Positions 16,528 to 36,785 of a stretch of 64,000 nt of DNA are shown piece by piece. The notes beneath the pieces were generated by a model. It searched no databases, was not told where the DNA came from, and worked only from the letters and a program-made list of their open reading frames with translations. Source of the stretch: a bacterium. GTDB taxonomy: Bacteria; Bdellovibrionota; UBA2428. The stretch covers positions 14,965 to 78,964 of the forward strand of contig JAACVK010000022.1 of NCBI GenBank assembly GCA_009991595.1, written 5' to 3'. Position numbers and translations under genes: made by a program. How positions within the stretch are numbered: position 1 is the stretch's first letter; every line of letters begins with the position of its first letter.

Positions 16528-19434
16528 CTACCTATAGTAAGGAGGCTGAGTTAATCGAGCCCGTATTGCCGCCGCATCATCTGCTTGCGGAAAAAGGTGA
16601 AGATACTTCTCAAAATTATCCTTGGCCAGTCCATATTGTCCCATACGGTCATATACGCGGCCTAGAATTCTATAGGCTTCAGCAACTTTATTGTTCTTAG
16701 CTAAGACTAACTTTGCGGTTTTTTCAGCATTATCAACGTCTTGCATTGCCCAGTAAGCCTGTGACAAACGCAACATCACTCGAGGATCACCACTTATTGT
16801 GTCTTCATACTTTTGAAAAAGCTCGGGCACCTGCTGGGGTAAATTAATTTCAAGCATAAATTCAGCAGCTTCAAGAAAGTTCCTTAAAACACTTGGCCGC
16901 AAATCAAGTTCTCTTTTATAAAACTCAAGGGCCTTATAGCGATCCCCACCCTTTCGGTAGGAACGAGCCACCTTCAAATACAAGTCCGGATAGTCGGGGT
17001 CATTTCGAGCAGCCGACAAGTAGTTTTGAGCGGCTTCAATGTATCGTTCCTTGGCAAAAAACATATCTGCAATTCGCACGCTGGCTTCTGTAGCACCGGG
17101 CCTAACTTTTTTTGCATCATTGTAAAAAAGCAAAGCCTCGTCCCATTTGCCCATTCGCTCATAAACGCTTCCAAGCAAGACCTTCAATTGATAAGCATGA
17201 GGAACTCTTCGAACATAATCCTTGGCAACTTCTAAGGCTTCTTGTGTTTTTCCAGCCTCATAAAGAGCAAAAACATATTCTTTTGCAATAAACACGTTTT
17301 GAGGATCGGCTTTAGTCGCTCGACCCAACTCACGAATGGCTTCACTCATTGGAAGTTTTGCCAAAATTCTACAGCGATAATACAAAAGCTCTGAAAGAAA
17401 ACGAATGGCGCCTCGTCCATGAATGCGGCCTAAGTTAGCGGCTTTCACACAATCATGGTTCTTCTCAACCTCAAAGAACGCTTTGGCTAAAAAGTAGTGC
17501 CCCATACCATCATTGGGAACATTCTTTCTATATCGCTGAAGTGTAGACACCGCCGCATCGAAATCTCTCCCATAAGTTAAAATAATTCCTTCATATTTAA
17601 TGGAGTCGCCTTTTGCTTTTGGATTCTGGACCATTTTGTCATGGAGCTGATAGGCCTCATCAAATCGAAAGTTCGCTGAATCAATCCATATTTTCGAACC
17701 TAATGCCTCTACGTTGGAAGGGTCTCTTTGTAAGATAAAACTGGCATCTCTGCTGGCTCTCTGCCAATCATTATAAAAAATTCCGTAATGTATAACGTGG
17801 ATCAAACTCTCGGAAGGATCGTCTAAAGCAAAAGATAGGTTCTCAAGAAAAGCAATATCCAAAAGATTGCTGGCCTTACGTTCAAGCTTTTTAATGATTT
17901 GGCCACTCATGTTCGAAACACTTAAGCCTTCAGATTCCAAATCCCAAAATTCTTTTGAATCTCCAACGTCCCCAGAAAGTAACAACTTAAAGTTCTCGAG
18001 CGCTTTCTTCTGAGGATCATCTCGCCCAAAGATTCCTTGAAATTGAGAATATTCCTTCCAAGCAACTGCCTGAAAGGCCATTGGGTATAGAGAAGCTATC
18101 GACAACAAGGACAGAAAAGCTTGTTGAGCCTTAGGTATTCCAGACGCACTCGCCCTCCAGTAGTATTCTGCAGCAGATAAGTTTCCAACAAATGATTGAG
18201 GGTCAAACTCTGCCAACTGTTCTAACAATTCCTCAGACTCCTGAGCTCCCTCTAACATTTCTTTACGAAGCTTAGACTGAATATCTAAATAGGGGTTCCC
18301 GTATTCTTTAATGTATAGCTGTGCAGGTTTGTTTCTTCCCTTATCTATAAACTCAATAAAGCTAATCTCATCTAAAAGCCAAGCAACATATTGATCTTGC
18401 TCAAGAGGACTCAAAATTTTGCGAGCTTCACTCCATTTTCCCTGAGCAAAGACCGGTATCACAGAAAGCAACGCTCTTTGCTCTTCATCTAAAAGAGATT
18501 TTTCATTAAGCCGATCTAGTATTTTTTCACCATAGGCGCGTAAAACATCTGCTTTTTTCCTGTCGGCCACTCCGATTGTTTCAGAAACCCAAAACAAATT
18601 CCAAACTCGCCTTGCCCAAAATGTGCTATTTGAAAAAAGAGCTTCTTCTTTTTCCATCGCAACTAAATCTTGAATCCACACATGGGCGCCAAATCCCAAA
18701 GGCAACGACCAACCCGTTGCGGGTGAAACTTCTCCCGGAAGTAGGTTCAAATCTATAGTTCCCAATGCGCCGAATCTATTCAGAGCATTGAAGTAATGAA
18801 GCTGACTATTGGCAGTGACTGAAAAACCTTTGGCATCAAGCTCCTTTATTCTGGGTCTTTCTAAAAGTAGAAAGAGACCTAACAGGCCCAAAGCCACCAA
18901 GGAAAAAACTAAAGGGCGGCTCCCTTTAACCCGAGTTTTTCTCTTGCCCTTCGAAGAAGAACTCTTCCCTGCTAAAGGGTTTTCTCTAACTTCGGTCTTC
19001 TCATCCTTATCGTCACTAAAGGAAGTTGAGCCTGATTTGTCGACCGAAGAACCCTCCAATTGTTCAATGTCCTCACTAAAAGGCATAAACGTCTTTGTTA
19101 CTAAAGAAGCGTCGCCTGTAACACGAGTTGCTTCGGCAGAATCTTCGTCTAGTGCATCTTCAAGACGATCCACCTTGGTGTCTTGATCCATTGCAGTTCT
19201 GGCTGTCTTTTTTCGTTTTTCAGTCCTATCTTCGATCGTCGACTGAATCTGATCAAAAAACTCCGGATCGCTACTTACAACTCTCCAACGGCCTTCTTCT
19301 AGAGAAAGCATTTCCTCTTCGCCTTGAATTTTCTTTAGACGAATAAACTTCAATACATCTGCGCGAGAATACGGCCCATAGATTTTGCCGCTTGGCATTT
19401 TGATTCTAAGAACTTTTCCTTCATCATCACTCAT
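16528..19434 (-). CDS. Membrane-anchored TPR protein with N-terminal GYF_2-like domain
   Basis: YGPYS...W motif at N-terminus, disordered linker, single TM (LVFSLVALGLLGLFLLL), many C-terminal TPR repeats. Confidence 0.75.
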   Translation of the reverse strand: MSDDEGKVLRIKMPSGKIYGPYSRADVLKFIRLKKIQGEEEMLSLEEGRWRVVSSDPEFFDQIQSTIEDRTEKRKKTARTAMDQDTKVDRLEDALDEDSAEATRVTGDASLVTKTFMPFSEDIEQLEGSSVDKSGSTSFSDDKDEKTEVRENPLAGKSSSSKGKRKTRVKGSRPLVFSLVALGLLGLFLLLERPRIKELDAKGFSVTANSQLHYFNALNRFGALGTIDLNLLPGEVSPATGWSLPLGFGAHVWIQDLVAMEKEEALFSNSTFWARRVWNLFWVSETIGVADRKKADVLRAYGEKILDRLNEKSLLDEEQRALLSVIPVFAQGKWSEARKILSPLEQDQYVAWLLDEISFIEFIDKGRNKPAQLYIKEYGNPYLDIQSKLRKEMLEGAQESEELLEQLAEFDPQSFVGNLSAAEYYWRASASGIPKAQQAFLSLLSIASLYPMAFQAVAWKEYSQFQGIFGRDDPQKKALENFKLLLSGDVGDSKEFWDLESEGLSVSNMSGQIIKKLERKASNLLDIAFLENLSFALDDPSESLIHVIHYGIFYNDWQRASRDASFILQRDPSNVEALGSKIWIDSANFRFDEAYQLHDKMVQNPKAKGDSIKYEGIILTYGRDFDAAVSTLQRYRKNVPNDGMGHYFLAKAFFEVEKNHDCVKAANLGRIHGRGAIRFLSELLYYRCRILAKLPMSEAIRELGRATKADPQNVFIAKEYVFALYEAGKTQEALEVAKDYVRRVPHAYQLKVLLGSVYERMGKWDEALLFYNDAKKVRPGATEASVRIADMFFAKERYIEAAQNYLSAARNDPDYPDLYLKVARSYRKGGDRYKALEFYKRELDLRPSVLRNFLEAAEFMLEINLPQQVPELFQKYEDTISGDPRVMLRLSQAYWAMQDVDNAEKTAKLVLAKNNKVAEAYRILGRVYDRMGQYGLAKDNFEKYLHLFPQADDAAAIRARLTQPPYYR

Positions 19435-20915
19435 CTAGCCATCAACTCAGCACTAGAGATTAAACCTTGAAGGTAAGTAAATCCAAACAACACAAGCAGC
19501 GAAAACACTGTTGCCGCAATAGCCGTCAAACTAGCTCCCGAAGATGAAGTCTCTGAATTTGTTTTTTTTGAATCAATTGCTGGATATAAAGCCATTGGAA
19601 CTAGAGATCTTAAATAGAAGCCTAGCCCTAAAAAGGTTCCAATCAATGCCACTGCTAACAGCAAAAATGCTGAATTTTTAGCAAGCACCGACAACAAAAC
19701 ATATTTTGTGAAAAACCCAGGAAGAGGTGGAATTCCAGCCAATGATAACAATGCAAATCCCAACAAAACTAGGTAAAATGGGCTCAACTTGGACTTGAGT
19801 TCCACAAAAGAATTAATTTCTAAATCATCGTCCATGCTTCTTCCCAATCGAAGCAATGCAATTTCATGAACAGCAAAACAGATCAAAACACTAAGCGCAT
19901 AGACCAACAAAAAGCCGATAACACTTGGTAGGACGCTCAAACCATTAGGCAAAACTAATGCGACAAAACCAGCATTCACAACTCCAGAGTAGGCCAACAT
20001 GCGCCTTAGTCGGCTTTGGGTAAGGGCCATGACGGCGCCCAAAACAACGCTCAAGACACCTAACAGTTTTACATATAATGAAACTCCCGGAATGTCCCAA
20101 AGTCCACATTCACTGAAAGCCAAAACAATCGACGAGAACACACTTAACTTCGTTGCTCCGGCCAAAAAAGAGGCAATGGGAGCTGGGGCTCCTTGATAAA
20201 CATCTGCCGCCCAGAAATGAAAAGGAAACAGAGAAACTTTAAAAGCTAATGAACTAAAAACAAGAGCAACGGCCGTAAAGCACAGAAATTGTTGGGGGCC
20301 AGCTGCGGCAGTCATTGCAACCGATATGGCTTCAAATTTGAAAGATCCACTCACAGCAAAGAACAAACTTATTCCGAGCAAAAAGAAACAGGATACAAAA
20401 GCCCCCATCATCAAATACTTCATCGAAGCCTCTAAGCTTTTTTCTCGATTTGAATACAATGCGCTTAACAAATAAGCCGGAATTGATAGCACCTCTAGAT
20501 AAACAAAAAATGCCACCCAATTTCGAGCTGTAGGCAACAAACACATCCCCAAAACACAAATTAGCAAGAGAGCTCCCCACTCAGAATGTCGAGCGTAATC
20601 GGGGCCTCGAACATAGAGAGAGCTCAAGGCAGCAATCAAACAAATTCCGCCAGCAACTATCCTCTCCATGGGCCCGAGCTCCATTGACGACCCCAAGAAA
20701 AAACGTCCTTGGCTTAACAAAGAAGCAAAAAATAATACAGCCGCCCCAGAAAGAAAGCTAAAACTCAAAGTACGTAAAACCAGGTCTTTCGCTCTCATAG
20801 AAGCTGCAACAACAAGCACAGCAATCCCTGCAAATAACAGAATAAAAGGAGAAAGGTTTTTCCAATCGTCCGGCCCTAAATAAAAGATACTCGAATCAAA
20901 AAAATCAATCGGCAT
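19431..20915 (-). CDS. nuoN: NADH-quinone oxidoreductase subunit N (arm 2)
   Basis: YLEVLS, EASMKY, FKVSLFPFHFW, ATK, LAYSG, GIPPLPGFFTK. Confidence 0.9.
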   Translation of the reverse strand: MPIDFFDSSIFYLGPDDWKNLSPFILLFAGIAVLVVAASMRAKDLVLRTLSFSFLSGAAVLFFASLLSQGRFFLGSSMELGPMERIVAGGICLIAALSSLYVRGPDYARHSEWGALLLICVLGMCLLPTARNWVAFFVYLEVLSIPAYLLSALYSNREKSLEASMKYLMMGAFVSCFFLLGISLFFAVSGSFKFEAISVAMTAAAGPQQFLCFTAVALVFSSLAFKVSLFPFHFWAADVYQGAPAPIASFLAGATKLSVFSSIVLAFSECGLWDIPGVSLYVKLLGVLSVVLGAVMALTQSRLRRMLAYSGVVNAGFVALVLPNGLSVLPSVIGFLLVYALSVLICFAVHEIALLRLGRSMDDDLEINSFVELKSKLSPFYLVLLGFALLSLAGIPPLPGFFTKYVLLSVLAKNSAFLLLAVALIGTFLGLGFYLRSLVPMALYPAIDSKKTNSETSSSGASLTAIAATVFSLLVLFGFTYLQGLISSAELMAR

Positions 20916-20918
20916 TCA

Positions 20919-22418
20919 TTACCTCAATATCTCGCCTTGAAGGTTATAGATTATTGTAGCGGAAGCTCGAGCTGTAACGGCAATCAAACCTTGTCCCCAA
21001 AAGCCGAGAACAATCATTGCTATAATCATCGGGATAATTGAACCCCACTCTGAAAAAGATAGTTTTATCGGGTGGCTTTTCAAGACAGAGGAGGTTTCTC
21101 CGTAAATCATTCCGCGAACAATTCGAAGCATATAAACAGCTCCTAATAAAATTCCAAAACACGCAAAGAAAGCAAACCATGGTGATAAAACAAAGGTTCC
21201 GTTCAAAATAAGAAATTCACCAATAAACCCAGGAAGGCCCGGAAGTCCAATGGAGGCCATTACGCTCAAAACAAAAAGCATAGAAAGCCGTGGGTTAACA
21301 ATTCCCAATCCACCGTAGTCAGACAACTCTCTAGTGTGGGTGCGGTCATAGATGATTCCAAAAATTAAAAACAATGCGCCCGTGCTCAAGCCATGGGCAA
21401 TGTTTTGAAACATAGCGCCCTGAAATCCCGCCAACTGAAAACTAAACAAACCCAAAAGCATAAAACCCAAATGGGCGACGGAAGAGTAAGCAATGGTGCG
21501 CTTAATGTCGGTTTGCCTAAGAGCTCCGTAACTTCCTAAAATTATCCCGGCCAAAGCCAAAACCTTCATCGTAAACGAAACAACATCCAAAACGGCGATA
21601 GAAGGAAACAAAGCCAAACACCAACGAGCAATCCCGTAGACGCCAAGCTTTAATAAAACGCCAGCCAAGATCACAGAAGCGCCAGTCGGAGCCTCCGTGT
21701 GCGCATCAGGAAGCCAAACATGAAGAGGCCAAGCTGGAATCTTCACCAAAAAAGCAATCAAAAAGCCGCAGAAAACCCAAAAACGTGGAGACCACAATCC
21801 ATCTCCCAACAAGCCCAACTGGGCAATCGAGTGCCAGCCCATACTTTGAATGTCGGGCTGCACCCACAAATATAGAATGGCAGCCAACATGGCCAAAGAG
21901 CCCAACATGGTGAAGGCAAAAAACTTCAGCGCAGCATAAACTCGGTTCTTAGAGCCCCAAATTCCAATCAGAAAGAACATTGGAATAAGCATGGCCTCCC
22001 AAAAGATATAAAAGACAAAGGCATCAGCAGCCATCAACGACCCAACGCTTGCTGCATTTAAAAGCGCAAACAAGGCTAAATAAGATGAGCTAAGTTTTTC
22101 TTTGCCTAGTGCATATAAAGACAAACAAAAACTTAAAAACACATTAAGGCCTATAAGCGGTAAATTTAAACCATCTAACCCTAAAGCAAAATTAGACTTA
22201 AGCAGTGGAAAGAAATCAGAATTGAAAACAATCGGGAACATCCCGTCAGCGGTGCTTGAACGCCAAAGCAAACAGCTTTGATACAAAAACCAAAACCACG
22301 GCAAATGAAAAACCATGTTTGCCCATTGAGCCGCCTTTTTGTTTTTTCTGAAAGTAAACAATAGAAAGGCGAAAATGGCTGGCCAAAAGATGAGCATAGC
22401 TGTGTTTATAGGGTCCAT
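20919..22418 (-). CDS. nuoM: NADH-quinone oxidoreductase subunit M (arm 2)
   Basis: FWEAML, VKIPAWPLHVWLPDAHTEAPT, LLKLG, FIGE; ATG 22418 chosen for its GGGAG SD. Confidence 0.95.
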   Translation of the reverse strand: MDPINTAMLIFWPAIFAFLLFTFRKNKKAAQWANMVFHLPWFWFLYQSCLLWRSSTADGMFPIVFNSDFFPLLKSNFALGLDGLNLPLIGLNVFLSFCLSLYALGKEKLSSSYLALFALLNAASVGSLMAADAFVFYIFWEAMLIPMFFLIGIWGSKNRVYAALKFFAFTMLGSLAMLAAILYLWVQPDIQSMGWHSIAQLGLLGDGLWSPRFWVFCGFLIAFLVKIPAWPLHVWLPDAHTEAPTGASVILAGVLLKLGVYGIARWCLALFPSIAVLDVVSFTMKVLALAGIILGSYGALRQTDIKRTIAYSSVAHLGFMLLGLFSFQLAGFQGAMFQNIAHGLSTGALFLIFGIIYDRTHTRELSDYGGLGIVNPRLSMLFVLSVMASIGLPGLPGFIGEFLILNGTFVLSPWFAFFACFGILLGAVYMLRIVRGMIYGETSSVLKSHPIKLSFSEWGSIIPMIIAMIVLGFWGQGLIAVTARASATIIYNLQGEILR

Positions 22419-24328
22419 AAGAAAATAGCTCCCACAATTAACGAAGACCAAAAAACAAAGTGCCAAGCGTAGGTCTGAACACTGCCAGTATGAAACAAAG
22501 CCAAGAGCCGTCCGCTTAAACGTGTAAAACGAAACGAACCATTGGCAAGTCCATTAAAGGTAGTCTCGTCTGAAATGCGATTGATAAACCTTCCCGCTTT
22601 CATGGACGGCTTAATTAAAAGCAATTCAAAAGCTTCATCTACATAAAACTTATTGGTGCTCCACTTGTGAAGCGGTTCCGGAAGTATCTTAAACTCCGGG
22701 TTCCTTTGATAGATCTTAAAGGAATAATAAGCCACGGTTAAAGACAGTACGCTAGTAATTAGCATCAACAACCACTCGGCTAGGTGTGACAAGTGAGCCT
22801 GCTCACCAACCCCTACACCATACCAAGAGGAATGAACCCAATCCGTAATTTTTGTGAAATGGCCAAAGACCTCGGGCAACTCTAACCAGCCAATAAAAAG
22901 AGAAAGAAAAGCAAGGACAACAAGCGGCATATACATTAGTGGGTCAGATTCATGAGCCTTTTGAGCATACTCACTTCGAGCGCCCCCCCAAAAGCACAAC
23001 GTGTAGGCCCTAAACATGTAGGCGGCAGTCAATAGAGCTGCGCCTAACAAAAGAATGTATCCAAACACACCCTGTGCAGCAAAAACCTTCGCTAAGATCA
23101 TGTCCTTTGAAAAAAAGCCTGCCGTCAAAGGGAAACCAATAATGGCCAAAGTTCCAATGAGAAAACAAACGTGAGTGATCTTCATTTTATCTTTTAACCC
23201 ACCCATTAATGACATCTCTTGTTTGTGATGCATACCATGGATGACAGATCCCGCCGCCAAAAACAAAAGAGCCTTAAAACAAGCATGAGTTATAACGTGG
23301 AAAAACGCGGCAGCTGGACTGCCCGCCCCAAGAGCAACAAACATAAAGCCAAGCTGACTGACTGTAGAATACGCTAATACTTTTTTCACATCGGTTTGGC
23401 TAACAGCAATTAAAGCAGCAAGCCAAGCAGTAGACATTCCAATCCAAAAAGCAGCATCTACAATCACTGGACTCATAGCAAAAAGTGGCCAGACTCTACA
23501 GATAAGGAATATGCCTGAAGTGACCATTGTTGCAGCGTGGATTAAGGCAGAAACGGGCGTAGGGCCAGCCATTGCATCTGGTAGCCAGATATACAGAGGA
23601 ATTTGAGCAGACTTTGCGGTTGCCGCCCAAAGCAAAGAGCCTGCAAAAGTATACCAAGCCCAGGTAGGAACCCCGCTGCTTAAAAAAGCATAATCATTAA
23701 CTCTTTCCGCCAAGCGACTAATGTCTCCAGTTTGAAAAAAGGAAAAGGCAACAAACAGTGCGATAAGAAAACCTATGTCGCCCACTCGATTTGTAATAAA
23801 GGCCTTCATGCCAGCGGCGGTGTTTTCAGGCTTCTTATACCAGTAGCCAATAAGCAGATAGGAACAAAGGCCAACTCCTTCCCATCCAAGAAAGACAACG
23901 GCCAAATTAGAGGCCAACACCAACACGAGCATTGCTGCAAGAAATAGATTCAAGTATGAGAAAAAGCGCCAAGGGCTCTCTTCCTCTGACAGATAAGAAA
24001 TAGAATAAATATGAATCAACGATCCAATGCCGGTAATAACCAAAAGCATAACTGAGGTAATAGAGGTTAGTTCTAAATTAAAAGGAACATAGACGTGCCC
24101 ACTACTCATCCACGTGAAAAGTGGATCAATCAAAAAGTTTTGCTCTGGCGCAGAATTCAGTCCAGATAACTGGGAACACGCTACAACACTAAACCCAAAT
24201 GCAACTAGACTGGCCAAAGTTGCAACCAAGCCTGAGATCTTTGCACTCTTATTTTGGAGAATCACTCCGTTGAGCACGGCGCCAAGCAAAGGGGCCAGTA
24301 AAATCCATCTCAATCCTTCAAAAATCAT
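22406..24328 (-). CDS. nuoL: NADH-quinone oxidoreductase subunit L (arm 2, normal lateral helix)
   Basis: GWEGVGLCSYLLIG, KSAQIP, WLPDAMAGPTPVSALIHAATMV, HACFKA, SKD. Confidence 0.97.
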   Translation of the reverse strand: MIFEGLRWILLAPLLGAVLNGVILQNKSAKISGLVATLASLVAFGFSVVACSQLSGLNSAPEQNFLIDPLFTWMSSGHVYVPFNLELTSITSVMLLVITGIGSLIHIYSISYLSEEESPWRFFSYLNLFLAAMLVLVLASNLAVVFLGWEGVGLCSYLLIGYWYKKPENTAAGMKAFITNRVGDIGFLIALFVAFSFFQTGDISRLAERVNDYAFLSSGVPTWAWYTFAGSLLWAATAKSAQIPLYIWLPDAMAGPTPVSALIHAATMVTSGIFLICRVWPLFAMSPVIVDAAFWIGMSTAWLAALIAVSQTDVKKVLAYSTVSQLGFMFVALGAGSPAAAFFHVITHACFKALLFLAAGSVIHGMHHKQEMSLMGGLKDKMKITHVCFLIGTLAIIGFPLTAGFFSKDMILAKVFAAQGVFGYILLLGAALLTAAYMFRAYTLCFWGGARSEYAQKAHESDPLMYMPLVVLAFLSLFIGWLELPEVFGHFTKITDWVHSSWYGVGVGEQAHLSHLAEWLLMLITSVLSLTVAYYSFKIYQRNPEFKILPEPLHKWSTNKFYVDEAFELLLIKPSMKAGRFINRISDETTFNGLANGSFRFTRLSGRLLALFHTGSVQTYAWHFVFWSSLIVGAIFLWTL

Positions 24329-24642
24329 CCCTTCAGTCTCCTGTAATCATCTAAAACAACTGAGCCAAAACGTCGGGAAAGAATAACAAAAATTGACAAA
24401 GCAATTGCAGCCTCAGCTGCGGCCACTAAAACAATAAACAAAAACAAGGAGGCCCCATCAGGCGAGGAGTGATGCTTAGAAAAGGTCATCAAGAACAAAT
24501 TCACACCATTAAGCATTAGCTCTAAACACATAAGAGCAATGAGCCCACTTCTTTTACAAAGAAACCCATAAGCTCCAATGGCAAATAGAGCAATTGAAAC
24601 AAAAACATGAAACTCAAGTTCTCCAACAGGAAGGGATATCAC
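24325..24642 (-). CDS. nuoK: NADH-quinone oxidoreductase subunit K (arm 2)
   Basis: ELMLNG and VAAAEAA conserved glutamates. Confidence 0.95.
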   Translation of the reverse strand: MISLPVGELEFHVFVSIALFAIGAYGFLCKRSGLIALMCLELMLNGVNLFLMTFSKHHSSPDGASLFLFIVLVAAAEAAIALSIFVILSRRFGSVVLDDYRRLKG

Positions 24643-25196
24643 GGCTCACCTCGCGATTCATTTGAAGGGCTTCTCACAGATTTCGCCAACATGATTACCC
24701 CTACAATCGCCGCTAATATTAAAAAACCGGTGGCCTGAAATGGAAGCATATATGTGCTTACAAAATTATATGAAATTGCTTTTGCCGAAAGCGCAGTCAA
24801 ATTACTTTCCTGAAGCCCCGGCTCAAAGAGTCCGGGAACAGCCAAAAGAGCGACAACAACAACAAACATCGCCGTTGCAGCAAAAGCTAGTAACGCAACA
24901 CCCTTTTGCCCAGGAATAGCCACACGCGATGGCTTTAGATCCAAAAGCATGACAATAAAAACAAACAAAACTGCTATGGCTCCTGCATAGATAAGTACTT
25001 GAACAACACCGGCAAAGTAGGCTCCTTTTGCAAAATATAAAAAGGCAGTTAAAAAGAGTGTCGCCATCAGGGACAATGCAGAACTCACTGCGCTTTTAGA
25101 ATGCACAACCCCAATAGCAGCGGCCAAGGCCAATATGCCCACAACCACCTGGAACAAATTAACTTGTCCCATTACAACTATACCCTCGCTCATCAA
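24639..25196 (-). CDS. nuoJ: NADH-quinone oxidoreductase subunit J (arm 2)
   Basis: QVLIYAGAIAVLFVFIVML; 5 TM. Confidence 0.93.
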   Translation of the reverse strand: MMSEGIVVMGQVNLFQVVVGILALAAAIGVVHSKSAVSSALSLMATLFLTAFLYFAKGAYFAGVVQVLIYAGAIAVLFVFIVMLLDLKPSRVAIPGQKGVALLAFAATAMFVVVVALLAVPGLFEPGLQESNLTALSAKAISYNFVSTYMLPFQATGFLILAAIVGVIMLAKSVRSPSNESRGEP

Positions 25197-28169: not shown

Positions 28170-28711
28170 TTTAAATCTCCCTCGGCTTGAACAACTGTAG
28201 AGCCAAAAGGGTCAAAGACAGGTTCGTCCTGACTGCTAACTTCAAACTCCTGCCGATAGTCGACAACAAAATCCTTTCTTAAAGGATGCCCCTTAAAAGA
28301 CGGGGGCAAAAGCATTCTTCTTAAATCAGGATGACCTGTAAAAATAATCCCATACATATCGTAAGCTTCTCGCTCCAGCCAGGAAGCACCCTTCCATAAC
28401 TGGTAAACCGAAGGAAGCTCGGGCTTGGTATCATTTTCAACTCGAGCCACCACGCGCATGCGTTTAGCAGTATCCATAGAGATCAACTCGTAAAAAACAT
28501 TAAAGCGTGGAGAACTTGGATGATCATCGTAAGCGCTTAAGTCTGCCAAATGAACAAACGCACTCTGTTCTAAGCCTCGAAGGTATGCAAGGAACTGTAT
28601 AATTCCCCTTGAGTCGACATACACTTCCCATTCTCCAGAAGAGCTCTCTCTTGCCTCTAAAATTTTAAATTTGCCTTCTGCATCAACAAGCCAAGCAGGT
28701 TTCGAGCTCAT
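28166..28711 (-). CDS. nuoC: NADH-quinone oxidoreductase subunit C
   Basis: WLEREAYDMYGI..GHPDLRR..GHPLRKDF; ATG 28711 overlaps the nuoA stop (ATGA). Confidence 0.94.
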   Translation of the reverse strand: MSSKPAWLVDAEGKFKILEARESSSGEWEVYVDSRGIIQFLAYLRGLEQSAFVHLADLSAYDDHPSSPRFNVFYELISMDTAKRMRVVARVENDTKPELPSVYQLWKGASWLEREAYDMYGIIFTGHPDLRRMLLPPSFKGHPLRKDFVVDYRQEFEVSSQDEPVFDPFGSTVVQAEGDLK

Positions 28712-29085
28712 GATTTCTCCCATTCAAGCGCGCCAGAACGATATTCAAACCATAAGCTCAAAACAAAGTAGAATAAAAAGAATCCCGTGAGGCCCATTGT
28801 AATCCAACCAAGCGCAATCATTTCATCCCAGGCAATAGCAAGGGGTAAAAGAAAGGCTACTTCTAAATCAAACAAAAGAAACAAAATCGCGATCAAGTAA
28901 TATTTAACGCTGACTTTATCACGAGCGTTTCCAGACACCGTCACACCACACTCGTAGGGCTGAATTTTTACACCCTCAAGATTGCGAGGGCCAAGAAATC
29001 TTCCAACAAACAGTGCGCCGCCAGCTACCAAAGAAGCAAAGCCCAGCATGGCTAACAATGGCAATAAAGTTTCGGCGCCGGTCAT
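28708..29085 (-). CDS. nuoA: NADH-quinone oxidoreductase subunit A (arm 2)
   Basis: PYECG, FLLFDLEVAFL; strong SD AAGGAG. Confidence 0.95.
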   Translation of the reverse strand: MTGAETLLPLLAMLGFASLVAGGALFVGRFLGPRNLEGVKIQPYECGVTVSGNARDKVSVKYYLIAILFLLFDLEVAFLLPLAIAWDEMIALGWITMGLTGFFLFYFVLSLWFEYRSGALEWEKS

Positions 29086-29100
29086 CCATACTCCTTAAAT

Positions 29101-30618
29101 CTACATTCCAACAAAAAAGTTCAATGCGTTCTTAGCCACCTTCATAACCGGCTCCCAGTAAATTCCAAGAACCAAGTTTGGCAAGGCAAGCAATACAATG
29201 AAGGCCAAAGATACTCTAGAGTCAAAACTCGTCTTACCCTCAGGCATAGCGACCTCGGCTTCATCTAAATACATGGCTCGAATTATCTTCACATAATAGA
29301 AAAGCGAGATCACGGAATTAAGCGCTGCAATCAAAGCAAAGCCATACATTTCACGCGCCAAAACCGCCGAGAACAAATACACTTTTCCTATAAAGCCCGC
29401 AAAGGGAGGAAGCCCCACCAAGGAAAACAAAAAGATGGCCATACAAGCTGCGTGAATGGGCTTTCTTGAGCCCAGCCCACGAAACTCGCTTATGCCGTCT
29501 CCGCCAAAGCAATCTTCGACCTTAGAGGTAACCCAAAAAGCTCCAAAATTCATGAAACAATAGACAACCAGATAGAAAATGATCGCCGTAAGCCCTTCAA
29601 AACTTTGAGTCGTCGCCCCCATCAAGATGTAACCCGCGTGAGCGATGCTTGAGTAAGCTAAAATTCTTTTGACTGAAAACTGACCTAAAGCAGCCAGGTT
29701 CCCCATGAACATAGTGAAGACAGACGAAATCATTAAAAGTTTAGTCCAGGCAACTGGGCCAACGGTATAAAACGATATAGCGGAAGCACTGCCCATTTGA
29801 GCAACTGCTGCAGCTCCCTCTTGGACCGGCAAACTAAAGCCAGTAATGAAAAACCTCATTAGCAACGCAAATCCAGCGGCCTTAGGAGCCACTGAAAATA
29901 GTGCGGTTACTGGGGTTGGAGCACCTTCATAAACATCCGGAGTCCACATGTGCATGGGCGCGGCTGAAACTTTATATCCAATTCCAGCAAACATTAGGAT
30001 GACTCCTGCCCAAAGAACGTTTGGCAAATCAGAAGTGGCTGTGGAAGAGAAAAACTCTCTTAAAGAGATCAAGTCCATGTGGCCGGTGGCCCCATAAACT
30101 AAGCTCATTCCAAAAACCATAAGAGCTGAAGCCATAGCACCATAAACCACGTATTTCATAGAGGCTTCCACGGAAGCCGTTCTTTCTCTTCGAAATCCCG
30201 CCAACGTAAAGCTCAAAATAGAAACCGTTTCAATCGACAAATACAGCATCAAGAAGTGATTTGATACACCCATGAACATAAGCCCTGTGCAAAGAGCCAA
30301 CAAAATGGAAAAATACTCGGGACGTCGATCAGCATATATCTCTTTTGATTCCATGCTCAAAAGAACACCAAACAAAACAACTATCACCGAAAAAATGGCA
30401 AAGAACAGTCCTAGCGAATCAAATACGATCAATCCGTTAAATGCGTCTTGAGCGGGATGCCCAACCATCGTGGCAAGTAAAACACCAGCTCCGAGCAATG
30501 TCACTATTGAAGAAACAACCGCAAACATCTTGTTTCGAATCCAAAGCCCGCCAACAAGAACAATGATCGCCCCCAAACAAAGCAACATATGGGGGCTAAC
30601 AAGAAACAGTGATCTCAT
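29101..30618 (-). CDS. nuoN: NADH-quinone oxidoreductase subunit N (arm 1)
   Basis: SIETVS, EASMKY, YKVSAAPMHMWTPDVYEGAP, APK, KRILAYSS, FIGK. Confidence 0.96.
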   Translation of the reverse strand: MRSLFLVSPHMLLCLGAIIVLVGGLWIRNKMFAVVSSIVTLLGAGVLLATMVGHPAQDAFNGLIVFDSLGLFFAIFSVIVVLFGVLLSMESKEIYADRRPEYFSILLALCTGLMFMGVSNHFLMLYLSIETVSILSFTLAGFRRERTASVEASMKYVVYGAMASALMVFGMSLVYGATGHMDLISLREFFSSTATSDLPNVLWAGVILMFAGIGYKVSAAPMHMWTPDVYEGAPTPVTALFSVAPKAAGFALLMRFFITGFSLPVQEGAAAVAQMGSASAISFYTVGPVAWTKLLMISSVFTMFMGNLAALGQFSVKRILAYSSIAHAGYILMGATTQSFEGLTAIIFYLVVYCFMNFGAFWVTSKVEDCFGGDGISEFRGLGSRKPIHAACMAIFLFSLVGLPPFAGFIGKVYLFSAVLAREMYGFALIAALNSVISLFYYVKIIRAMYLDEAEVAMPEGKTSFDSRVSLAFIVLLALPNLVLGIYWEPVMKVAKNALNFFVGM

Positions 30619-30619
30619 A

Positions 30620-32176
30620 TCAATTGAGCGTCTCCACTAAGAAGTTTAAAGAAGTCTTCATTAAAGTAATAAAAGGACTTGGATAAACACCAATCCAAAC
30701 ACACAACAAAGCCAATGGAGCCAACACGGCCCATTCATTAGCCCTCATTGGTGCCAAGCCTTCCGCTGGAACCAATTGCCCTGTGGTCATGTCTTTTTCT
30801 TTTGTTGTCCATGGTCCCAAGAAAACTCGTTGAACCATCCACAACAAATATGCGGCGGTTAAAACAATTCCCAATGCCGCAATAATTGTCTCAGTTCTAT
30901 AGACCGGGAATGCCCCTAGAAAAACCAATGCCTCAGAGACAAATCCATTTAAAGTAGGAAGCCCAAGACTGGCAAAGACAGCCAAGGTCCAAACGGCCGT
31001 GATAACGGGCGCTCTTTGAGCAATTCCGCCAAAACCTAGTTCACCATTGTGCTCAATGTAACGATGATGAAGACGATCGTATAAAACCCCCACTAACATA
31101 AACATCATTGCAGAAGACAGCCCGTGATTGAACATTTGTAGAACCGCGCCCTGCATCCCTTCAGGCGTAAAAACGGCCATTCCTAAGATGCAATAACCCA
31201 TGTGGCTCACCGAAGAGTAGGCAACCAGTTTTTTCAAATCGGTTTGGGCCATCGCACAGAAGGCCCCGTAGATAATATTTATAATACCTAAAACAACTAA
31301 GATGTATGAAAAAGCTTGAGTGGCTTGTGGAAAGAGTTGGTAGTTAACTCTCAAAAACCCATACACCCCCATCTTTAATAAAACACCGGCTAGAATAACA
31401 GAAACCGCGGTGGGAGCTTGAACGTGAGCCCAAGGAAGCCAAGTGTGAAAGGGAAAGATTGGCACCTTCACGGCGAATCCAAAAAAGAGTAGCCACCAAA
31501 CCGTTTTATCAAATGGTAGATCAGTTCCAAAGATATGAACCGTATAACCAGACCAGTCCTGGCTAGCTAAACTAATAAGATTAAAAGTCGCTAAGTGATT
31601 GCCAGAAGGATCTCGGCTGTAAAAATACAGAGCGAGCATTCCGACAAGCATCAAGACCGAGCCAAAAAGCGTGTAGAGAAAAAATTTAATAGCAGCGTAT
31701 TCTTTTTTCTCTCCACCCCAAATTCCGACAAGAAAATACATAGGAAGAAGCATTAGCTCCCAGAAAACATAGAACAAGAAGAAATCTAAGGCGCAAAAAA
31801 CACCCAACATTCCCACATGCAAAAGAAGAAACATCATAAAATAGCCTTTTACAAATTTCTTCACATTCCAGCTGGCAAACATACACAAAAAGCTGAGCAT
31901 TGTGCCCAAAAGAATCATCAAGATGCTTATCCCGTCGACTCCAAGATGATATTCAACGTTTATGCTTGGTATCCAAATAGCTTGCTCAATAAATTGGGCT
32001 TCACTGAGTCCAGAATCAAACTGACCAAGTAAGTTTAAAGCCAAAACGAAGGGAACCAGGGTAACCGCTACCGATATCCACTTAATTAAGTTCTCCTGCT
32101 TTGAGGGCACAAAAAGTAGCCCAAAAAAACCAAGCAACGGGAAAAAAATAATCCAACTAAGAATATGTTCAGTCAT
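30620..32176 (-). CDS. nuoM: NADH-quinone oxidoreductase subunit M (arm 1)
   Basis: FWELML, VKVPIFPFHTWLP, LLKMG, DLKKLVAYSS, FVSE. Confidence 0.97.
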   Translation of the reverse strand: MTEHILSWIIFFPLLGFFGLLFVPSKQENLIKWISVAVTLVPFVLALNLLGQFDSGLSEAQFIEQAIWIPSINVEYHLGVDGISILMILLGTMLSFLCMFASWNVKKFVKGYFMMFLLLHVGMLGVFCALDFFLFYVFWELMLLPMYFLVGIWGGEKKEYAAIKFFLYTLFGSVLMLVGMLALYFYSRDPSGNHLATFNLISLASQDWSGYTVHIFGTDLPFDKTVWWLLFFGFAVKVPIFPFHTWLPWAHVQAPTAVSVILAGVLLKMGVYGFLRVNYQLFPQATQAFSYILVVLGIINIIYGAFCAMAQTDLKKLVAYSSVSHMGYCILGMAVFTPEGMQGAVLQMFNHGLSSAMMFMLVGVLYDRLHHRYIEHNGELGFGGIAQRAPVITAVWTLAVFASLGLPTLNGFVSEALVFLGAFPVYRTETIIAALGIVLTAAYLLWMVQRVFLGPWTTKEKDMTTGQLVPAEGLAPMRANEWAVLAPLALLCVWIGVYPSPFITLMKTSLNFLVETLN

Positions 32177-32179
32177 TTC

Positions 32180-34279
32180 TCAAAGTACCCCTATCAATAG
32201 ATAAATTGTGAGAAGAGCCACCGCGGCCACCATCAAATACCTTTGAATCTTTCCATTTTGTAATGTTCTTAAGGAGGCGCCCAAATACTGAGGAACGCTT
32301 CCACCTACACCATCTACCAACACTTCATCTATTACAGTGTCATCAAATTTGCCGATGAACGTTTTCACTACGGCATTCACGTCTTTCCAGCCATCAACCA
32401 AAATTCGATCAATGATCAGATCGTCAAAACGAGCCATCAACCTTGAGAAAGGAAGAAACACTCTTTTTATAAAGACATCTTTATAGAGCCAATCGAAATA
32501 ATAAAGATTATCGATAGCCTTATGAACAAAATTTGGCCAAAGCTTTGCAAGCTTTTCAGCCGGAATAGTTTTGGACTTATACACAAGCCAGCTGAAAACA
32601 ATCCCCAGAGTTGCTAGAACCACAGAAGCGATCATGCCAGGAAGATGCGCCTGGTGAAGCAAATGCTCGAAGTGCTCATCAACCTTAACCACTGGAGCTT
32701 TGATCAACTTAACAAACCATTCGTTTCCACCACCAAGAACAAAGTCTCCGTGCCCCAAAAGGCCGCCCGTGACAGATCCCGAGAATAAAACAGACAAAGA
32801 AAGTCCAGCCAAAACAACCAACGGTAGCCACATATTCCACGGAACTTCATGGGCATGTTCAACATGTTTTTTATCTCCAGCCTCGCCGAAGAAGGTCATA
32901 AACATCAAGCGGAACATATAAAAGGCAGTCAAGCCGGCCGTTAAAAAGCCAGCAATCGGAAGAAACATATGCTCTGGATGTTCGAAACCACCGTAAGCAA
33001 GCGCACTCACCAAAATAGCGTCCTTAGAAACAAAGCCACTAAAGAGCGGAACTCCAGAGATGGCCAGCGTTGCTACAAGCATCGCCTTGTAGGTAATAGG
33101 CAATCTTTTTCTCAAATCGCCCATTTTGCGCATATCTTGTTCGTGATGCATGGCATAGATCACAGCTCCAGAAGCCATAAACAAACAAGCCTTAAAAATT
33201 GCATGCGTAATCAAGTGCATGAAAGAAGCGGTATACGCGCCCACTCCGACGGCCAAAACCATGTACCCCAACTGAGAAAGAGTGGAGTAAGCCAACACTT
33301 TTTTAATATCAAACTGCTTTATGGCCAATATAGCGGCAAACAAAGAAGTGAAAGCGCCCACATAAGCAATTAAAGGAAGAACTCCACCAAGCTCAAGCAA
33401 GGGGAAGGTTCTAATGATCAAATAAACACCGGCAGCCACCATCGTTGCAGCATGAATCAACGCAGAAACGGGAGTTGGTCCTTCCATCGCATCAGGAAGC
33501 CAAACTTGAAGTGGGAACTGAGCAGACTTTCCAACCGTTCCACAAAAAATAAGGAAACCAATAAAGGTTGCTGTCGCAAAACCTAAGGTTTCTCCACCGA
33601 AGGCTCCTTGTTCGATTGCCGCATAAATATCATCAAAGCGGAATGATCCAATTTGAGTGAACAGCGCAAGCATACCAATGAATAAGAGAGTGTCTCCAAT
33701 TCGAGTGGTCATAAAGGCTTTAATAGAAGCATTTGCAGCTGAGGGCTTGTGTCGATAAAAGCCGATCAACAAGTAGGAACAAAGTCCCATGACTTCCCAA
33801 AACATAAAGAGCGTAAACAAGTTGTCAGAAATAACCAGAGCCAACATGGCTGAGGTGAACAAAGACAAAAAGGCAAAAAAAGAAGCGTATCTATATCCGT
33901 CCGACTCTTTTCCATCATAATCGCGCATGTAACCGGTTGAGAACAAATGAATCAAAGTGGCGCAGAGGGTTACCATGAAAAGCATCACGGCGGCCAAATT
34001 ATCCAAACGAACACCTAGCTCTAATTTAAAAGGGTGAGCTGCTGTTCCAGAGTCCAGCCATGTCCAATGAGCCGTAACAACCCAATTTGGATCAAAATTG
34101 CTCCACATATTAGCAAAAATAATTGAGGCACATATAAAAGAGACAAAAATCGCAGAAACACTAACCCAGTCACCCATTCTAGGGAGTCTTTTTCCAACAA
34201 ACGCCTGGATCAAATAAGCCACCAAGGGAAACGCCGGAATCAAAAGGGCAAGTGTTATCAAAGAGTCGTTAGCCATCAT
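32180..34279 (-). CDS. nuoL: NADH-quinone oxidoreductase subunit L (arm 1, extended lateral helix)
   Basis: FWEVMGLCSYLLIG, KSAQFP, WLPDAMEGPTPVSALIHAATMV, HAIFKA, SKD; duplicated FDDxxIDxxLVDG segment. Confidence 0.97.
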   Translation of the reverse strand: MMANDSLITLALLIPAFPLVAYLIQAFVGKRLPRMGDWVSVSAIFVSFICASIIFANMWSNFDPNWVVTAHWTWLDSGTAAHPFKLELGVRLDNLAAVMLFMVTLCATLIHLFSTGYMRDYDGKESDGYRYASFFAFLSLFTSAMLALVISDNLFTLFMFWEVMGLCSYLLIGFYRHKPSAANASIKAFMTTRIGDTLLFIGMLALFTQIGSFRFDDIYAAIEQGAFGGETLGFATATFIGFLIFCGTVGKSAQFPLQVWLPDAMEGPTPVSALIHAATMVAAGVYLIIRTFPLLELGGVLPLIAYVGAFTSLFAAILAIKQFDIKKVLAYSTLSQLGYMVLAVGVGAYTASFMHLITHAIFKACLFMASGAVIYAMHHEQDMRKMGDLRKRLPITYKAMLVATLAISGVPLFSGFVSKDAILVSALAYGGFEHPEHMFLPIAGFLTAGLTAFYMFRLMFMTFFGEAGDKKHVEHAHEVPWNMWLPLVVLAGLSLSVLFSGSVTGGLLGHGDFVLGGGNEWFVKLIKAPVVKVDEHFEHLLHQAHLPGMIASVVLATLGIVFSWLVYKSKTIPAEKLAKLWPNFVHKAIDNLYYFDWLYKDVFIKRVFLPFSRLMARFDDLIIDRILVDGWKDVNAVVKTFIGKFDDTVIDEVLVDGVGGSVPQYLGASLRTLQNGKIQRYLMVAAVALLTIYLLIGVL

Positions 34280-34614
34280 CCTCGCAGCTCCATAACTTGA
34301 TCTGGATCAATGTTTTTCTTAGCGCCAAACACACGCAACACGATTGCCAAGGCAACCGCGGCCTCAATTGCAGCCAAGACTATTATAAAGAGACTAAAGA
34401 TCTGTCCATCTAACCATGGTGAGCTTTGAGCAGAGTCAGCCTTGAGGGCATAAAAAGCAACGAAGTTAATAGCAGCGGCGTTAAGAACCAGCTCAACACC
34501 CATAAAAACTCCGACTGCGTTTCTTCGGGTTAAAATAGTAAATAACCCAAAAACAAAGAACACAGTCGACATTGCCAAATAAATTGTCAAATTATGAGCA
34601 ATTCCCGCAAACAT
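34276..34614 (-). CDS. nuoK: NADH-quinone oxidoreductase subunit K (arm 1)
   Basis: RRN, ELVLNAA, LAAIEAAVALA. Confidence 0.95.
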   Translation of the reverse strand: MFAGIAHNLTIYLAMSTVFFVFGLFTILTRRNAVGVFMGVELVLNAAAINFVAFYALKADSAQSSPWLDGQIFSLFIIVLAAIEAAVALAIVLRVFGAKKNIDPDQVMELRG

Positions 34615-34616
34615 AA

Positions 34617-35141
34617 CTATGAATTACCCCCATCTTGATCCTTTTTGAGAATATTTGGCCTGGCTACAACAATGGCGCCAATAAGACCGAACAAAAGAAC
34701 AATCGCAACATATTCAAAAATCAAAGCATAGGGCCCAGTTAAAGCCTGACCAATACGAATTGTTGTGTTTTCGTAATTTGGTATACGCAATTCACCCCAA
34801 TTTGTGGAAACAAGTAACTTAAACATTCCCAACATGAGAGCGATCGATAAAATGGTTGGTAAAAACATCTTCTTTACCCCATCCAAGAAACGTCTTTTAT
34901 AGATACTCTCCGACATCATCACCGCAAATAAGATCACAACAATAACGCCGCCAACATAAATGATCAGCTGAGCAGCCGCCAAGAAGTCAGCACCTAGCGA
35001 AGCATATACACCAGCCACCGCAAGCAACGACCCAATCAAGGCAACAGCCGCATAAAGAATGTTTGGATGAAGCGCCACGACAGCCGAACAAACAACGCCA
35101 CCTAAAAAGCAAAATACAACAAAAAAATCTAGAAAACTCAT
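34617..35141 (-). CDS. nuoJ: NADH-quinone oxidoreductase subunit J (arm 1)
   Basis: ADFLAAAQLIIYVGGVIVVILFAVM. Confidence 0.94.
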   Translation of the reverse strand: MSFLDFFVVFCFLGGVVCSAVVALHPNILYAAVALIGSLLAVAGVYASLGADFLAAAQLIIYVGGVIVVILFAVMMSESIYKRRFLDGVKKMFLPTILSIALMLGMFKLLVSTNWGELRIPNYENTTIRIGQALTGPYALIFEYVAIVLLFGLIGAIVVARPNILKKDQDGGNS

Positions 35142-36283
35142 CCAGCACCCATCATTCCGCTGATCAGCTCAATCATACTTTGTCCTTTAAATATCCAAAC
35201 CCACAGAGAAGCTCCGACCAAATTAAAGAAGGCTATTGGAATTAGGTATTTCCAACAAAGATCCATTAGCTGATCCACTCGCAATCGCGGAAGCGTCCAA
35301 CGCAACCACATCACCACAAAAACAATGACCGAAGCTTTGCCTAGAAAGATCAAGATCATAAACAACGTTTGAATAAGAGGATCAAGACTTTTACCAGCAA
35401 GAGACCAGCCCAAATGAATGTTTTCTATGTTTACGAAAGGGAGATGCCAACCGCCCAAGAAAATAGCCGCGGCAACACACGCGAACATAATTACATCTGC
35501 AAATTCAGCCAAAGCATATAAACCAAAACGCATTCCACTAAACTCAGTATTAAACCCAGAAACAAGTTCTGACTCGGCTTCAGGCAAATCAAAAGGCGTT
35601 CTATTACATTCCGCCAAGGCGGCTACAAAATAGACAAAGAAGTTTAGAAACAAAAACGGGTTATGGAAAATGTACCAAAAACTACCCGAACCCAGCCAAG
35701 CTTGGCCGTCGACAATTTTGATCATGCTCATCTGCCCAGAAACAACAACCACACTTAATAGAGCGATCCCAAGCGGAATTTCATAAGAGACAATCTGTGC
35801 AGCTCCACGCATTCCACCCAACAAAGACCATTTATTTTCTGACGACCATGCACCCAACAAAATCCCCAGAGAAACCAAGGAGGCGAGCGCCATGACATAA
35901 AAAATTCCAATATCTAAGTCGGCACCGATAACGTATTTCGAAAAAGGAATAGCAGCAAAAGCGCCCAAGGCTCCGGCAGTCACTAAGCCCGGAGCAAGGT
36001 TGTAGATAAACATGTCTGCATTTTTAGTTGCAGTATCTTCCTTAAGAAACATTTTGATTCCATCAGCAAAGAATTGAAGTATCCCGAAAGGGCCTACCCG
36101 GTTGGGGCCAATTCTCTCTTGAAAGTCGGCCGCAACCTTTCTTTCAATATAAGTACAAATCCCACCAATAGGCATTGCGAACCCAAGAATCACAATCACC
36201 GCAGCGGCAATTGAAAAAACGAAAAAGGGCACGTTTGGAGGTATAAAATCGTTCAGACCACTTAAAAACTCGGCAAGGCTCAC
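35138..36283 (-). CDS. nuoH: NADH-quinone oxidoreductase subunit H (arm 1)
   Basis: ERKVAA..GPNRVGPFG, QIVSYE, NRTPFDLPEAESELVSG, TLPRLRVDQL. Confidence 0.97.
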   Translation of the reverse strand: MSLAEFLSGLNDFIPPNVPFFVFSIAAAVIVILGFAMPIGGICTYIERKVAADFQERIGPNRVGPFGILQFFADGIKMFLKEDTATKNADMFIYNLAPGLVTAGALGAFAAIPFSKYVIGADLDIGIFYVMALASLVSLGILLGAWSSENKWSLLGGMRGAAQIVSYEIPLGIALLSVVVVSGQMSMIKIVDGQAWLGSGSFWYIFHNPFLFLNFFVYFVAALAECNRTPFDLPEAESELVSGFNTEFSGMRFGLYALAEFADVIMFACVAAAIFLGGWHLPFVNIENIHLGWSLAGKSLDPLIQTLFMILIFLGKASVIVFVVMWLRWTLPRLRVDQLMDLCWKYLIPIAFFNLVGASLWVWIFKGQSMIELISGMMGAG

Positions 36284-36287
36284 TTCT

Positions 36288-36737
36288 TTAGGAATCCTTT
36301 ACATTTTCAAATCGATGTTTAAAGGCCGCATCTTCTCTCAAAGCCTGCTTTCTTTCAATTGCATCTCTCACCCAATCTATATCTCCTTTTTTCCACTCGT
36401 AGATAAGACCGACCAAAAGAACAAACAAAAAGCCAAAGGCCAATAAAAATATTGGCAATGCTCCACCGTTAATTGCAGCTTCTCTAAAAAGCCTCATTAT
36501 CGGAAAAAGCAATGCAACTTCAACATCAAAAACGAGAAAGACAATCGCAACCAAGTAAAAGCGATTGTTGAACATTACAAACGCTGAGCCAACAGGGTCT
36601 TCTCCACATTCATAGGTGGCTAGCTTTCCCGAATAGGGATAACTAGGCCTTAGAAATTTTGATACAAACAAAATTCCCACAGGCAAAACTGCAGCTAAAA
36701 CAATAAAAGATAAGGCGTTTGCAAACTCTTGGAGCAT
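36288..36737 (-). CDS. nuoA: NADH-quinone oxidoreductase subunit A (arm 1)
   Basis: TYECGEDP, FLVFDVEV; ATG 36737 preferred over the upstream TTG. Confidence 0.94.
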   Translation of the reverse strand: MLQEFANALSFIVLAAVLPVGILFVSKFLRPSYPYSGKLATYECGEDPVGSAFVMFNNRFYLVAIVFLVFDVEVALLFPIMRLFREAAINGGALPIFLLAFGFLFVLLVGLIYEWKKGDIDWVRDAIERKQALREDAAFKHRFENVKDS

Positions 36738-36785
36738 GTTATCGACTATTTTTATCACAGACTGATAAGGTGACAACCAACTGAC

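Follow-up and report, generated by a model that had tools for sequence, protein, structure and literature searches.

A Bdellovibrionota operon that probably encodes the membrane arms of two different complex I enzymes

Described nuo arrangements and the 17-gene operon

The genes of a complex I enzyme normally share an operon of their own, and selection is believed to work against hybrids. We analysed a stretch of 64,000 nucleotides (the window) from a bacterium of the Bdellovibrionota lineage UBA2428 (NCBI GenBank assembly GCA_009991595.1, contig JAACVK010000022.1, positions 14,965 to 78,964 of the forward strand), in which one operon of 17 nuo genes carries two sets of membrane-arm genes, here called arm 1 and arm 2. 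This operon likely carries part of the genes for two distinct complex I enzymes, both complete and each with its own set of peripheral subunits. The host genome was assembled from a metagenome and amounts to 2.96 Mb in 124 contigs, with a completeness of 90.56%; the window is part of its contig C59.

Two complex I isozymes occur in about 3% of bacterial genomes, where they usually belong to different clades and are encoded in separate operons (PMC4453560). The present genome resembles these in holding two phylogenetically distant complex I types, but the isozymes described there occupy two operons, whereas here both membrane arms share one and the peripheral genes are spread over at least four loci. 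According to a footnote in the same paper, one strain has a single nuoEFG and the remaining genes in duplicate. Complex I-like enzymes of 11 subunits that lack the N-module (NuoEFG) are widespread (Moparthi and Hagerhall 2011, PMC3144371), and arm 1, together with a solo nuoB and the nuoC, nuoD and nuoI genes of contig C107, makes up exactly the subunit set of these enzymes as described there and in a study of Desulfitobacterium (PMC11238625). Unlike in those accounts, the 11 genes are here split over three loci, with nuoC-nuoD-nuoI preceding a Rieske/cytochrome b operon.

Both the split nuo layout and the partial nuoAHJKLMN cluster have appeared in earlier work. The "split" nuo operon was defined with Bdellovibrio as an example (Degli Esposti 2015, PMC4758237), and a 2026 paper on Peredibacter reported a nuoAHJKLMN cluster in all Bdellovibrionota studied, along with a second nuo set that is 37.5-41.5% identical (PMC13147790). 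As in those layouts, nuoA, H, J, K, L, M and N form a cluster of their own here, with peripheral genes elsewhere; this is true of arm 1, while arm 2 keeps nuoC, nuoE and nuoF, and in some other families both arms consist of AHJKLMN only. The second set is separate in the published layouts but is joined head to tail with the first in the present operon. Neither the 17-gene order, with C-E-F inside arm 2, nor a fused nuoB-D lacking nuoC is described in the passages of these two papers that deal with nuo layout, and the fusions reported there are NuoCD and NuoBCD (PMC4758237). Our literature search found no paper using the term nuoBD and no description of two nuo sets in one operon, though supplementary figures on Bdellovibrio (PMC4758237 fig. 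S2, PMC13147790) may show the latter. Partial nuoAHJKLMN operons are also known from marine actinomycetes (PMC6676996), which are similar in having an extra A-H-J-K-L-M-N cluster besides a full nuo set; the actinomycete extra arm is described as an added partial operon, whereas a complete clade-matched peripheral set exists here. What we describe is thus an unusual arrangement of the genes of two known enzyme types, shared across the lineage, and neither one enzyme with two arms nor a new kind of enzyme.

All 17 open reading frames (ORFs) lie on the minus strand, from 36776 to 19431, and in the direction of transcription read nuoA-H-J-K-L-M-N (arm 1) followed by nuoA-C-E-F-H-J-K-L-M-N (arm 2). 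Each matches its Pfam family above the curated cut-offs and over the full profile length, with E-values from 1e-20 to 1e-111. The spacing between genes ranges from -61 to +15 nt, with 4-nt overlaps at eight junctions; the longest spacer, 15 nt, separates the nuoN1 stop from the nuoA2 start. An earlier sequence-only reading of the window had described 17 tightly coupled genes in this order, with all copies of A, H, J, K, L, M and N full length, and the coordinates, Pfam assignments and profile spans bear this out, every ORF being found at the coordinates it gave. That reading had ended the operon at 36737, which is the first ATG of the nuoA1 frame; the frame itself opens at a TTG at 36776. The genes are as follows, in order of transcription.

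36288..36776, minus strand: nuoA1 (PF00507, 9.7e-29), 162 aa from TTG 36776, first ATG at 36737; D84 and E86 invariant in 10 family sequences
35138..36283, minus strand: nuoH1 (PF00146, 4.2e-110); in the NuoH tree within a starred 33-row clade of 11-gene-type clusters
34617..35141, minus strand: nuoJ1 (PF00499, 9.9e-30)
34276..34614, minus strand: nuoK1 (PF00420, 1.6e-20); E41 and E84 invariant in 11 sequences
32180..34279, minus strand: nuoL1, 699 aa (PF00361, PF00662, PF01010); E162, K251 and K419 present
30620..32176, minus strand: nuoM1 (PF00361, 1.3e-71); E140, K237 and E415 present
29101..30618, minus strand: nuoN1 (PF00361); E130, K216, K246 and K412 invariant in 13 sequences; in a starred 39-row clade of 11-gene type
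29086..29100, minus strand: 15-nt spacer between nuoN1 and nuoA2; by direct reading, AAGGAG 6 nt ahead of the nuoA2 ATG
28708..29085, minus strand: nuoA2 (PF00507, 6.7e-26); D73 and E75 invariant in 12 sequences
28166..28723, minus strand: nuoC, 30 kDa subunit of the arm-2 set (PF00329, 3.6e-41)
27636..28169, minus strand: nuoE, 2Fe-2S subunit (PF01257, 6.5e-43); sole copy in the genome
26269..27639, minus strand: nuoF, 51 kDa subunit with flavin mononucleotide (PF01512, PF10589, SLBB); sole copy in the genome
25193..26272, minus strand: nuoH2 (PF00146, 7.6e-111); in the NuoH tree among 14-gene clusters with nuoH after nuoG
24639..25196, minus strand: nuoJ2 (PF00499, 1.9e-28)
24325..24642, minus strand: nuoK2 (PF00420, 4.1e-24); E41 and E77 invariant in 12 sequences
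22406..24328, minus strand: nuoL2, 640 aa (PF00361, PF00662, PF01010); E150, K239 and K408 present
20919..22466, minus strand: nuoM2 (PF00361, 7.2e-73); E157, K242 and E417 present
19431..20915, minus strand: nuoN2, fast-evolving (PF00361, 3.6e-47); E141, K226, K256 and K404 invariant in 11 family orthologues

The longest frame of nuoM2 starts at a TTG and overlaps nuoL2 by 61 nt, and its real start may be further in. All look-alikes of nuoN2 in a protein atlas are NuoN proteins.

Clade membership and constraint of the two arms

The two arms belong to different clades of complex I. When named genomes were scanned with aligned NuoN1 orthologues, the matches listed comprised 80 loci, and within these the named loci closest to NuoN1 were 11-gene nuoABCDHIJKLMN clusters from records of Ignavibacteriales, Kapaibacterium, Bacteroidota, Eisenbacteria, Balneolaceae and Neomarinimicrobiota, the best NuoN1 identity being 44%. 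In a tree of NuoH (89 rows, built by a quick method with support from the Shimodaira-Hasegawa-like approximate likelihood-ratio test only), H1 falls in a starred 33-row set (97) made up solely of nuoH genes that follow nuoD in 11-gene clusters and of the phylum's own nuoH genes that follow nuoA. H2 lies in the other half of the tree, in a starred 21-row set (95) with nuoH genes that follow nuoG in 14-gene clusters. A NuoN tree made with FastTree places N1 in a starred 39-row set (99) containing the same named lineages, while N2 forms a long branch.

The peripheral genes sort in a similar manner. The B, C, D and I proteins of the 11-gene clusters of named genomes find their best matches here in the solo NuoB and in the C, D and I of contig C107, whereas the I proteins of 14-gene clusters best match a solo nuoI, and their D proteins mostly best match a fused protein of relatives (see below). 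In near-complete relatives from another family that carry arm 1 alone, NuoF (TIGR01959) was found in none of five genomes and a matching NuoD in all five. This clade placement and the arm-1-only relatives without NuoF indicate that arm 1 belongs to an enzyme without the N-module. By these comparisons, arm 1 is the whole membrane arm of a predicted NuoEFG-less, 11-subunit complex I of a Bacteroidota/Ignavibacteria-type clade, and arm 2 is the membrane arm of a predicted canonical 14-subunit NADH type. The genome encodes every subunit of an 11-subunit enzyme (A, B, C, D, H, I, J, K, L, M and N); that such an arm works without NuoEFG is seen in the relatives and is indirect in this genome, which contains one nuoE and one nuoF. 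For the 14-subunit type, the arm-2 membrane subunits are full length, keep their channel residues and group with clusters containing nuoEFG; of its N-module and quinone module, nuoE, nuoF, nuoC and the solo nuoI are present in this genome, and nuoG, a second nuoB and a second nuoD were not found. The H and N trees and the gene complement therefore agree with the proposal, made from the window alone, of two isoenzymes in which arm 2 is the canonical NADH type and arm 1 lacks the N-module.

Between the arms, paralogues are 35% (A), 39% (H), 24% (J), 40% (L), 35% (M) and 25% (N) identical, and K1 and K2 gave no BLAST match to each other at E<=1e-3. A recent duplication of one arm is ruled out by this identity of 24-40% and by the membership of different clades. 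Despite this divergence, already remarked upon in the earlier reading, the key charged residues that it listed were all located in both copies. All six antiporter-like subunits keep the Glu of transmembrane helix (TM) 5, the Lys of TM7, and the Lys (L, N) or Glu (M) of TM12; each NuoK copy has its two Glu, and each NuoA copy has a D-x-E motif. The roles of these proton-channel residues are as in the literature on E. coli and Thermus. Across the family, the channel residues are invariant in both arms.

Mean pairwise identity within the family is 73% for H1, 72% for M1 and 59% for N1, as compared with 67% for H2, 58% for M2 and 39% for N2. Since all frames are intact and the channel residues invariant, both arms are, as judged from these features, under purifying selection, with arm 2 evolving faster. 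NuoN2 is much the fastest subunit, with 39% mean identity and 11% invariant columns as against 59% and 31% in NuoN1. At a position where M1, M2 and N1 share a conserved His, N2 has Asn; the four N2 channel residues stay invariant.

The faster evolution of arm 2 raises the possibility that this organism is losing it, nuoBD and nuoG having truly been deleted and the remaining ten genes decaying. Such a loss would fit the failure to find nuoBD and nuoG in the genome, and no end branch in the respective clades is longer than those of this genome's H2 and N2 (0.50 and 0.96). All ten arm-2 frames are nevertheless intact and full length with their channel residues kept, and H1 likewise has the longest branch of its clade (0.21), which makes long branches a lineage effect and not one of arm 2 alone. 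A loss of arm 2 is therefore, in our judgement, quite improbable.

Peripheral genes in this genome and its relatives

Outside the operon, the genome has a single nuoB, which stands alone on contig C67 after an iscA-like gene. Only one nuoI scores above the NCBIfam cut-off (136 bits, cut-off 113), and it too stands alone on contig C67, after smpB. Contig C107 carries a second nuoC, the only nuoD and a divergent second nuoI. Cysteine motifs for Fe-S clusters are intact in NuoB and in both NuoI copies. From the best-match labels of the solo nuoB and the C107 genes, arm 1 has a complete quinone module of matching clade in this genome. The count that the earlier reading had called for thus comes to one nuoB, two nuoC, one nuoD and two nuoI; searches with TIGR01973 and with a relative's NuoG found no nuoG in this genome, which is 90.6% complete. 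That nuoC, nuoE and nuoF occur once holds within the operon, and for nuoE and nuoF in the genome as well, but not for nuoC, given the copy on C107.

On contig C107 (L008:1847-10430, minus strand), nuoC-nuoD-nuoI lead straight into a group of genes whose products are a HEAT-repeat protein, a Rieske protein, a cytochrome b in split form and a multihaem cytochrome c of 968 aa. This linkage of nuoCDI to Rieske/cytochrome b genes is kept in all six family relatives examined, which suggests that the nuoCDI part of the quinone module may be co-expressed with a bc-type complex.

The presence of this module bears on whether arm 1 is part of complex I at all. It could instead be an independent Mrp-like cation/proton antiporter, as proposed for the nuoAHJKLMN operons of marine actinomycetes; there is no peripheral gene within the arm-1 cluster, and partial nuoAHJKLMN operons have been discussed as separate proton pumps (PMC6676996). 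The genome does, however, encode B, C, D and I of the arm-1 clade as a full set with intact Fe-S motifs, the arm includes NuoH and NuoA, which are subunits of the quinone-site interface, and the relatives that have this arm alone, without NuoF, keep the matching NuoD. An Mrp-like locus also exists separately on contig C97, and we regard an antiporter role for arm 1 as very improbable. An identity as Mrp-type antiporters was likewise rejected for the two arms in general, as both contain NuoH, NuoA and NuoJ. The C97 locus (L010), on a contig of 7.9 kb, has two MrpA/MrpD-like antiporter genes that are 25-34% identical to NuoL, NuoM and NuoN.

Conservation of the tandem in relatives is extensive. 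A NuoN1 orthologue is present in 19 of 19 family genomes, and the 17-gene order is identical in all 11 family loci fetched, from nine genera, three of them cut by contig ends; the tandem order, which the sequence-only reading had proposed to check in relatives, is thus kept. A second nuoB and nuoD occur in 17 of the 19 family relatives, as one frame of 559-594 aa or as truncated pieces, and the two relatives without them are 66-67% complete. In these genes NuoB is fused to NuoD without NuoC between them (e.g. L031:8015-9793, minus strand, and L032:7746-9452, plus strand), and nuoC stays in the main operon. Directly after the fused nuoB-D, nuoG was identified by Pfam in two loci, and in 6/6 loci fetched the adjacent ORF best matches that nuoG by BLAST. 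In one family relative (G015:C3:227196-227532), the solo nuoB is in two pieces with a TGA between them, reflecting a frameshift or a sequencing error.

A wider survey covered a sample of 200 genomes of the phylum, the family counts being those among the matches listed. Two nuoH genes 7-11 kb apart on the same contig and strand were found in at least five families (f1, f4, f5, f15 and f19). The layout in f4 and f5 is AHJKLMN-AHJKLMN, with no peripheral gene in the tandem. In the other tandem-bearing families, two nuoD, two nuoB and one nuoF are found in separate peripheral clusters (5/5 good genomes). The junction from nuoN to nuoA also appears in three named records, two of them Marinimicrobia/Neomarinimicrobiota and one labelled Enterobacteriaceae (L041, L052 and L108).

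These junctions speak to the possibility that operons of two organisms were wrongly joined between nuoN1 and nuoA2, in assembly or in binning. The genome is metagenome-assembled, and an independent contig bridging the junction was not recovered: four DNA runs from other studies yielded 100%-identical fragments, but in contigs of 150-540 bases. The same junction is present in all 11 independently assembled loci of relatives, from nine genera, junctions from N to A recur in other families and in the three named records above, and guanine-cytosine (GC) content is even along the operon, at 0.43-0.46. We consider a chimeric join exceedingly unlikely; for the refuting case that the sequence-only reading had foreseen, the relatives' assemblies are decisive.

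The single nuoB and nuoD in this assembly, beside two copies each of A, C, H, I, J, K, L, M and N, would also be expected if two interchangeable membrane arms docked on one shared quinone module, switching pump stoichiometry or quinone specificity; the syntenic sites of the relatives' nuoBD-nuoG hold other genes here, which is in keeping with this idea. The relatives tell against it, with a second B and D in 17/19 of the family (the two exceptions being the 66-67% complete genomes noted above) and two B and two D in 5/5 genomes of other tandem-bearing families. The present genome is itself only 90.6% complete and in 124 contigs, and the subunits that would have to meet at the interface, H and A on one side and B and D on the other, come from different ancient clades. 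Moreover, nuoE and nuoF are intact yet need NuoG, which adjoins nuoBD in relatives, so that one gap explains three absences. As two B and two D accompany two arms throughout, a shared peripheral arm, the alternative offered by the earlier reading, is unsupported for this lineage, and we judge it improbable for this organism.

We favour instead two enzymes with separate peripheral sets, and consider that the absence of nuoBD-nuoG is probably an assembly gap. One missing stretch of about 3.5 kb would account for the lack of a second nuoB, a second nuoD and nuoG, and nuoE and nuoF, useless without NuoG, would be intact because nuoG merely lies in that stretch. Several observations weigh against two complete enzymes. 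With no second nuoB or second nuoD found in this genome, in addition to nuoG, arm 2 is left without three essential subunits. In relatives, nuoBD-nuoG has neighbours whose counterparts in this genome sit near the start of contig C102 and the end of contig C88, beside other genes, and the flanks vary among relatives; synteny thus gives no positive sign of a contig break hiding nuoBD-nuoG. The faster evolution of arm 2 (39% family mean for N2 against 59% for N1) may point to weaker constraint. That each arm pairs with peripheral subunits of its own clade is something we infer from phylogeny, and none of the 150-540-base contigs, being too short, bridges 29086-29100 with 31 letters on each side.

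Expression, assembly and biological meaning

The two arms are probably co-transcribed, as suggested by the gene spacing. The 15-nt spacer between nuoN1 and nuoA2 contains AAGGAG and has no room for a terminator plus a promoter, and a scan for terminator-like sites listed nothing within it. Over the scanned sequence, promoter-like sites numbered 27 against 25.7 expected, which is chance level, and terminator-like sites 52 against 28 expected but inside T-rich membrane-protein genes; neither count was used as evidence. The divergent gpsA gene starts at 36786 on the plus strand, 9 nt from the TTG at 36776 and 48 nt from the ATG at 36737. Given a gpsA start so close, the operon promoter must overlap the gpsA coding region or the operon's own leader.

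At the other end of the operon, nuoN2 is followed by a gene for a protein with tetratricopeptide repeats (TPR).

16528..19434, minus strand: gene for a 968-aa TPR protein (TPR families), with a 4-nt overlap with the nuoN2 stop

The protein has a conserved N-terminal domain of about 100 aa, a charged stretch of low complexity, a likely membrane helix and, at the C-terminus, the TPR repeats. Sequence encoding the N-terminal ~100 aa comes directly after nuoN2 in 10/11 family loci. This is probably the 18th gene of the operon, and its product could serve as an accessory or assembly factor.

We propose that genes 1-7 (A1 H1 J1 K1 L1 M1 N1) provide the membrane arm of an 11-subunit enzyme whose quinone-module genes would have moved to contigs C67 and C107, while genes 8-17 (A2 C E F H2 J2 K2 L2 M2 N2) would belong to a 14-subunit, NADH-oxidising enzyme. 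The rest of the latter would be supplied by the solo nuoI and, as in relatives, by a fused nuoB-D followed by nuoG, which in this organism may fall within the ~9% of the genome missing from the assembly. A single transcript from a promoter upstream of nuoA1 would carry both arms and probably the TPR gene, with nuoA2 translated independently from its own ribosome-binding site. Peripheral subunits of the matching clade would then join each arm. The outcome would be one NADH-driven pump and one pump with another donor, possibly ferredoxin-like, and the choice or ratio of the two enzymes could be set at the dispersed peripheral loci.

A more specific scheme, which we put forward tentatively and think unlikely, is that the arms are always made together from one transcript and that the dispersed quinone-module genes (solo nuoB and nuoCDI-Rieske versus nuoBD-nuoG) decide which enzyme is completed, possibly with hybrids or a physical association of the 11-subunit enzyme with that cytochrome b complex. 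If this were true, the old conservation of the tandem over at least five families would reflect a shared assembly pathway and not an accident of insertion.

Both enzymes appear to be ordinary members of their known clades; the interest of the locus is in genome organisation and in the logic of assembly rather than in any new way of pumping protons. Throughout a bacterial family, one operon encodes the hydrophobic subunits of both complex I enzymes, and the genes for the hydrophilic ones are scattered. If this layout is functional, it would offer a natural system for how each membrane arm is matched with the right peripheral arm as the enzymes are put together, and for how a bacterium may balance an NADH-fed pump against a pump with another donor.

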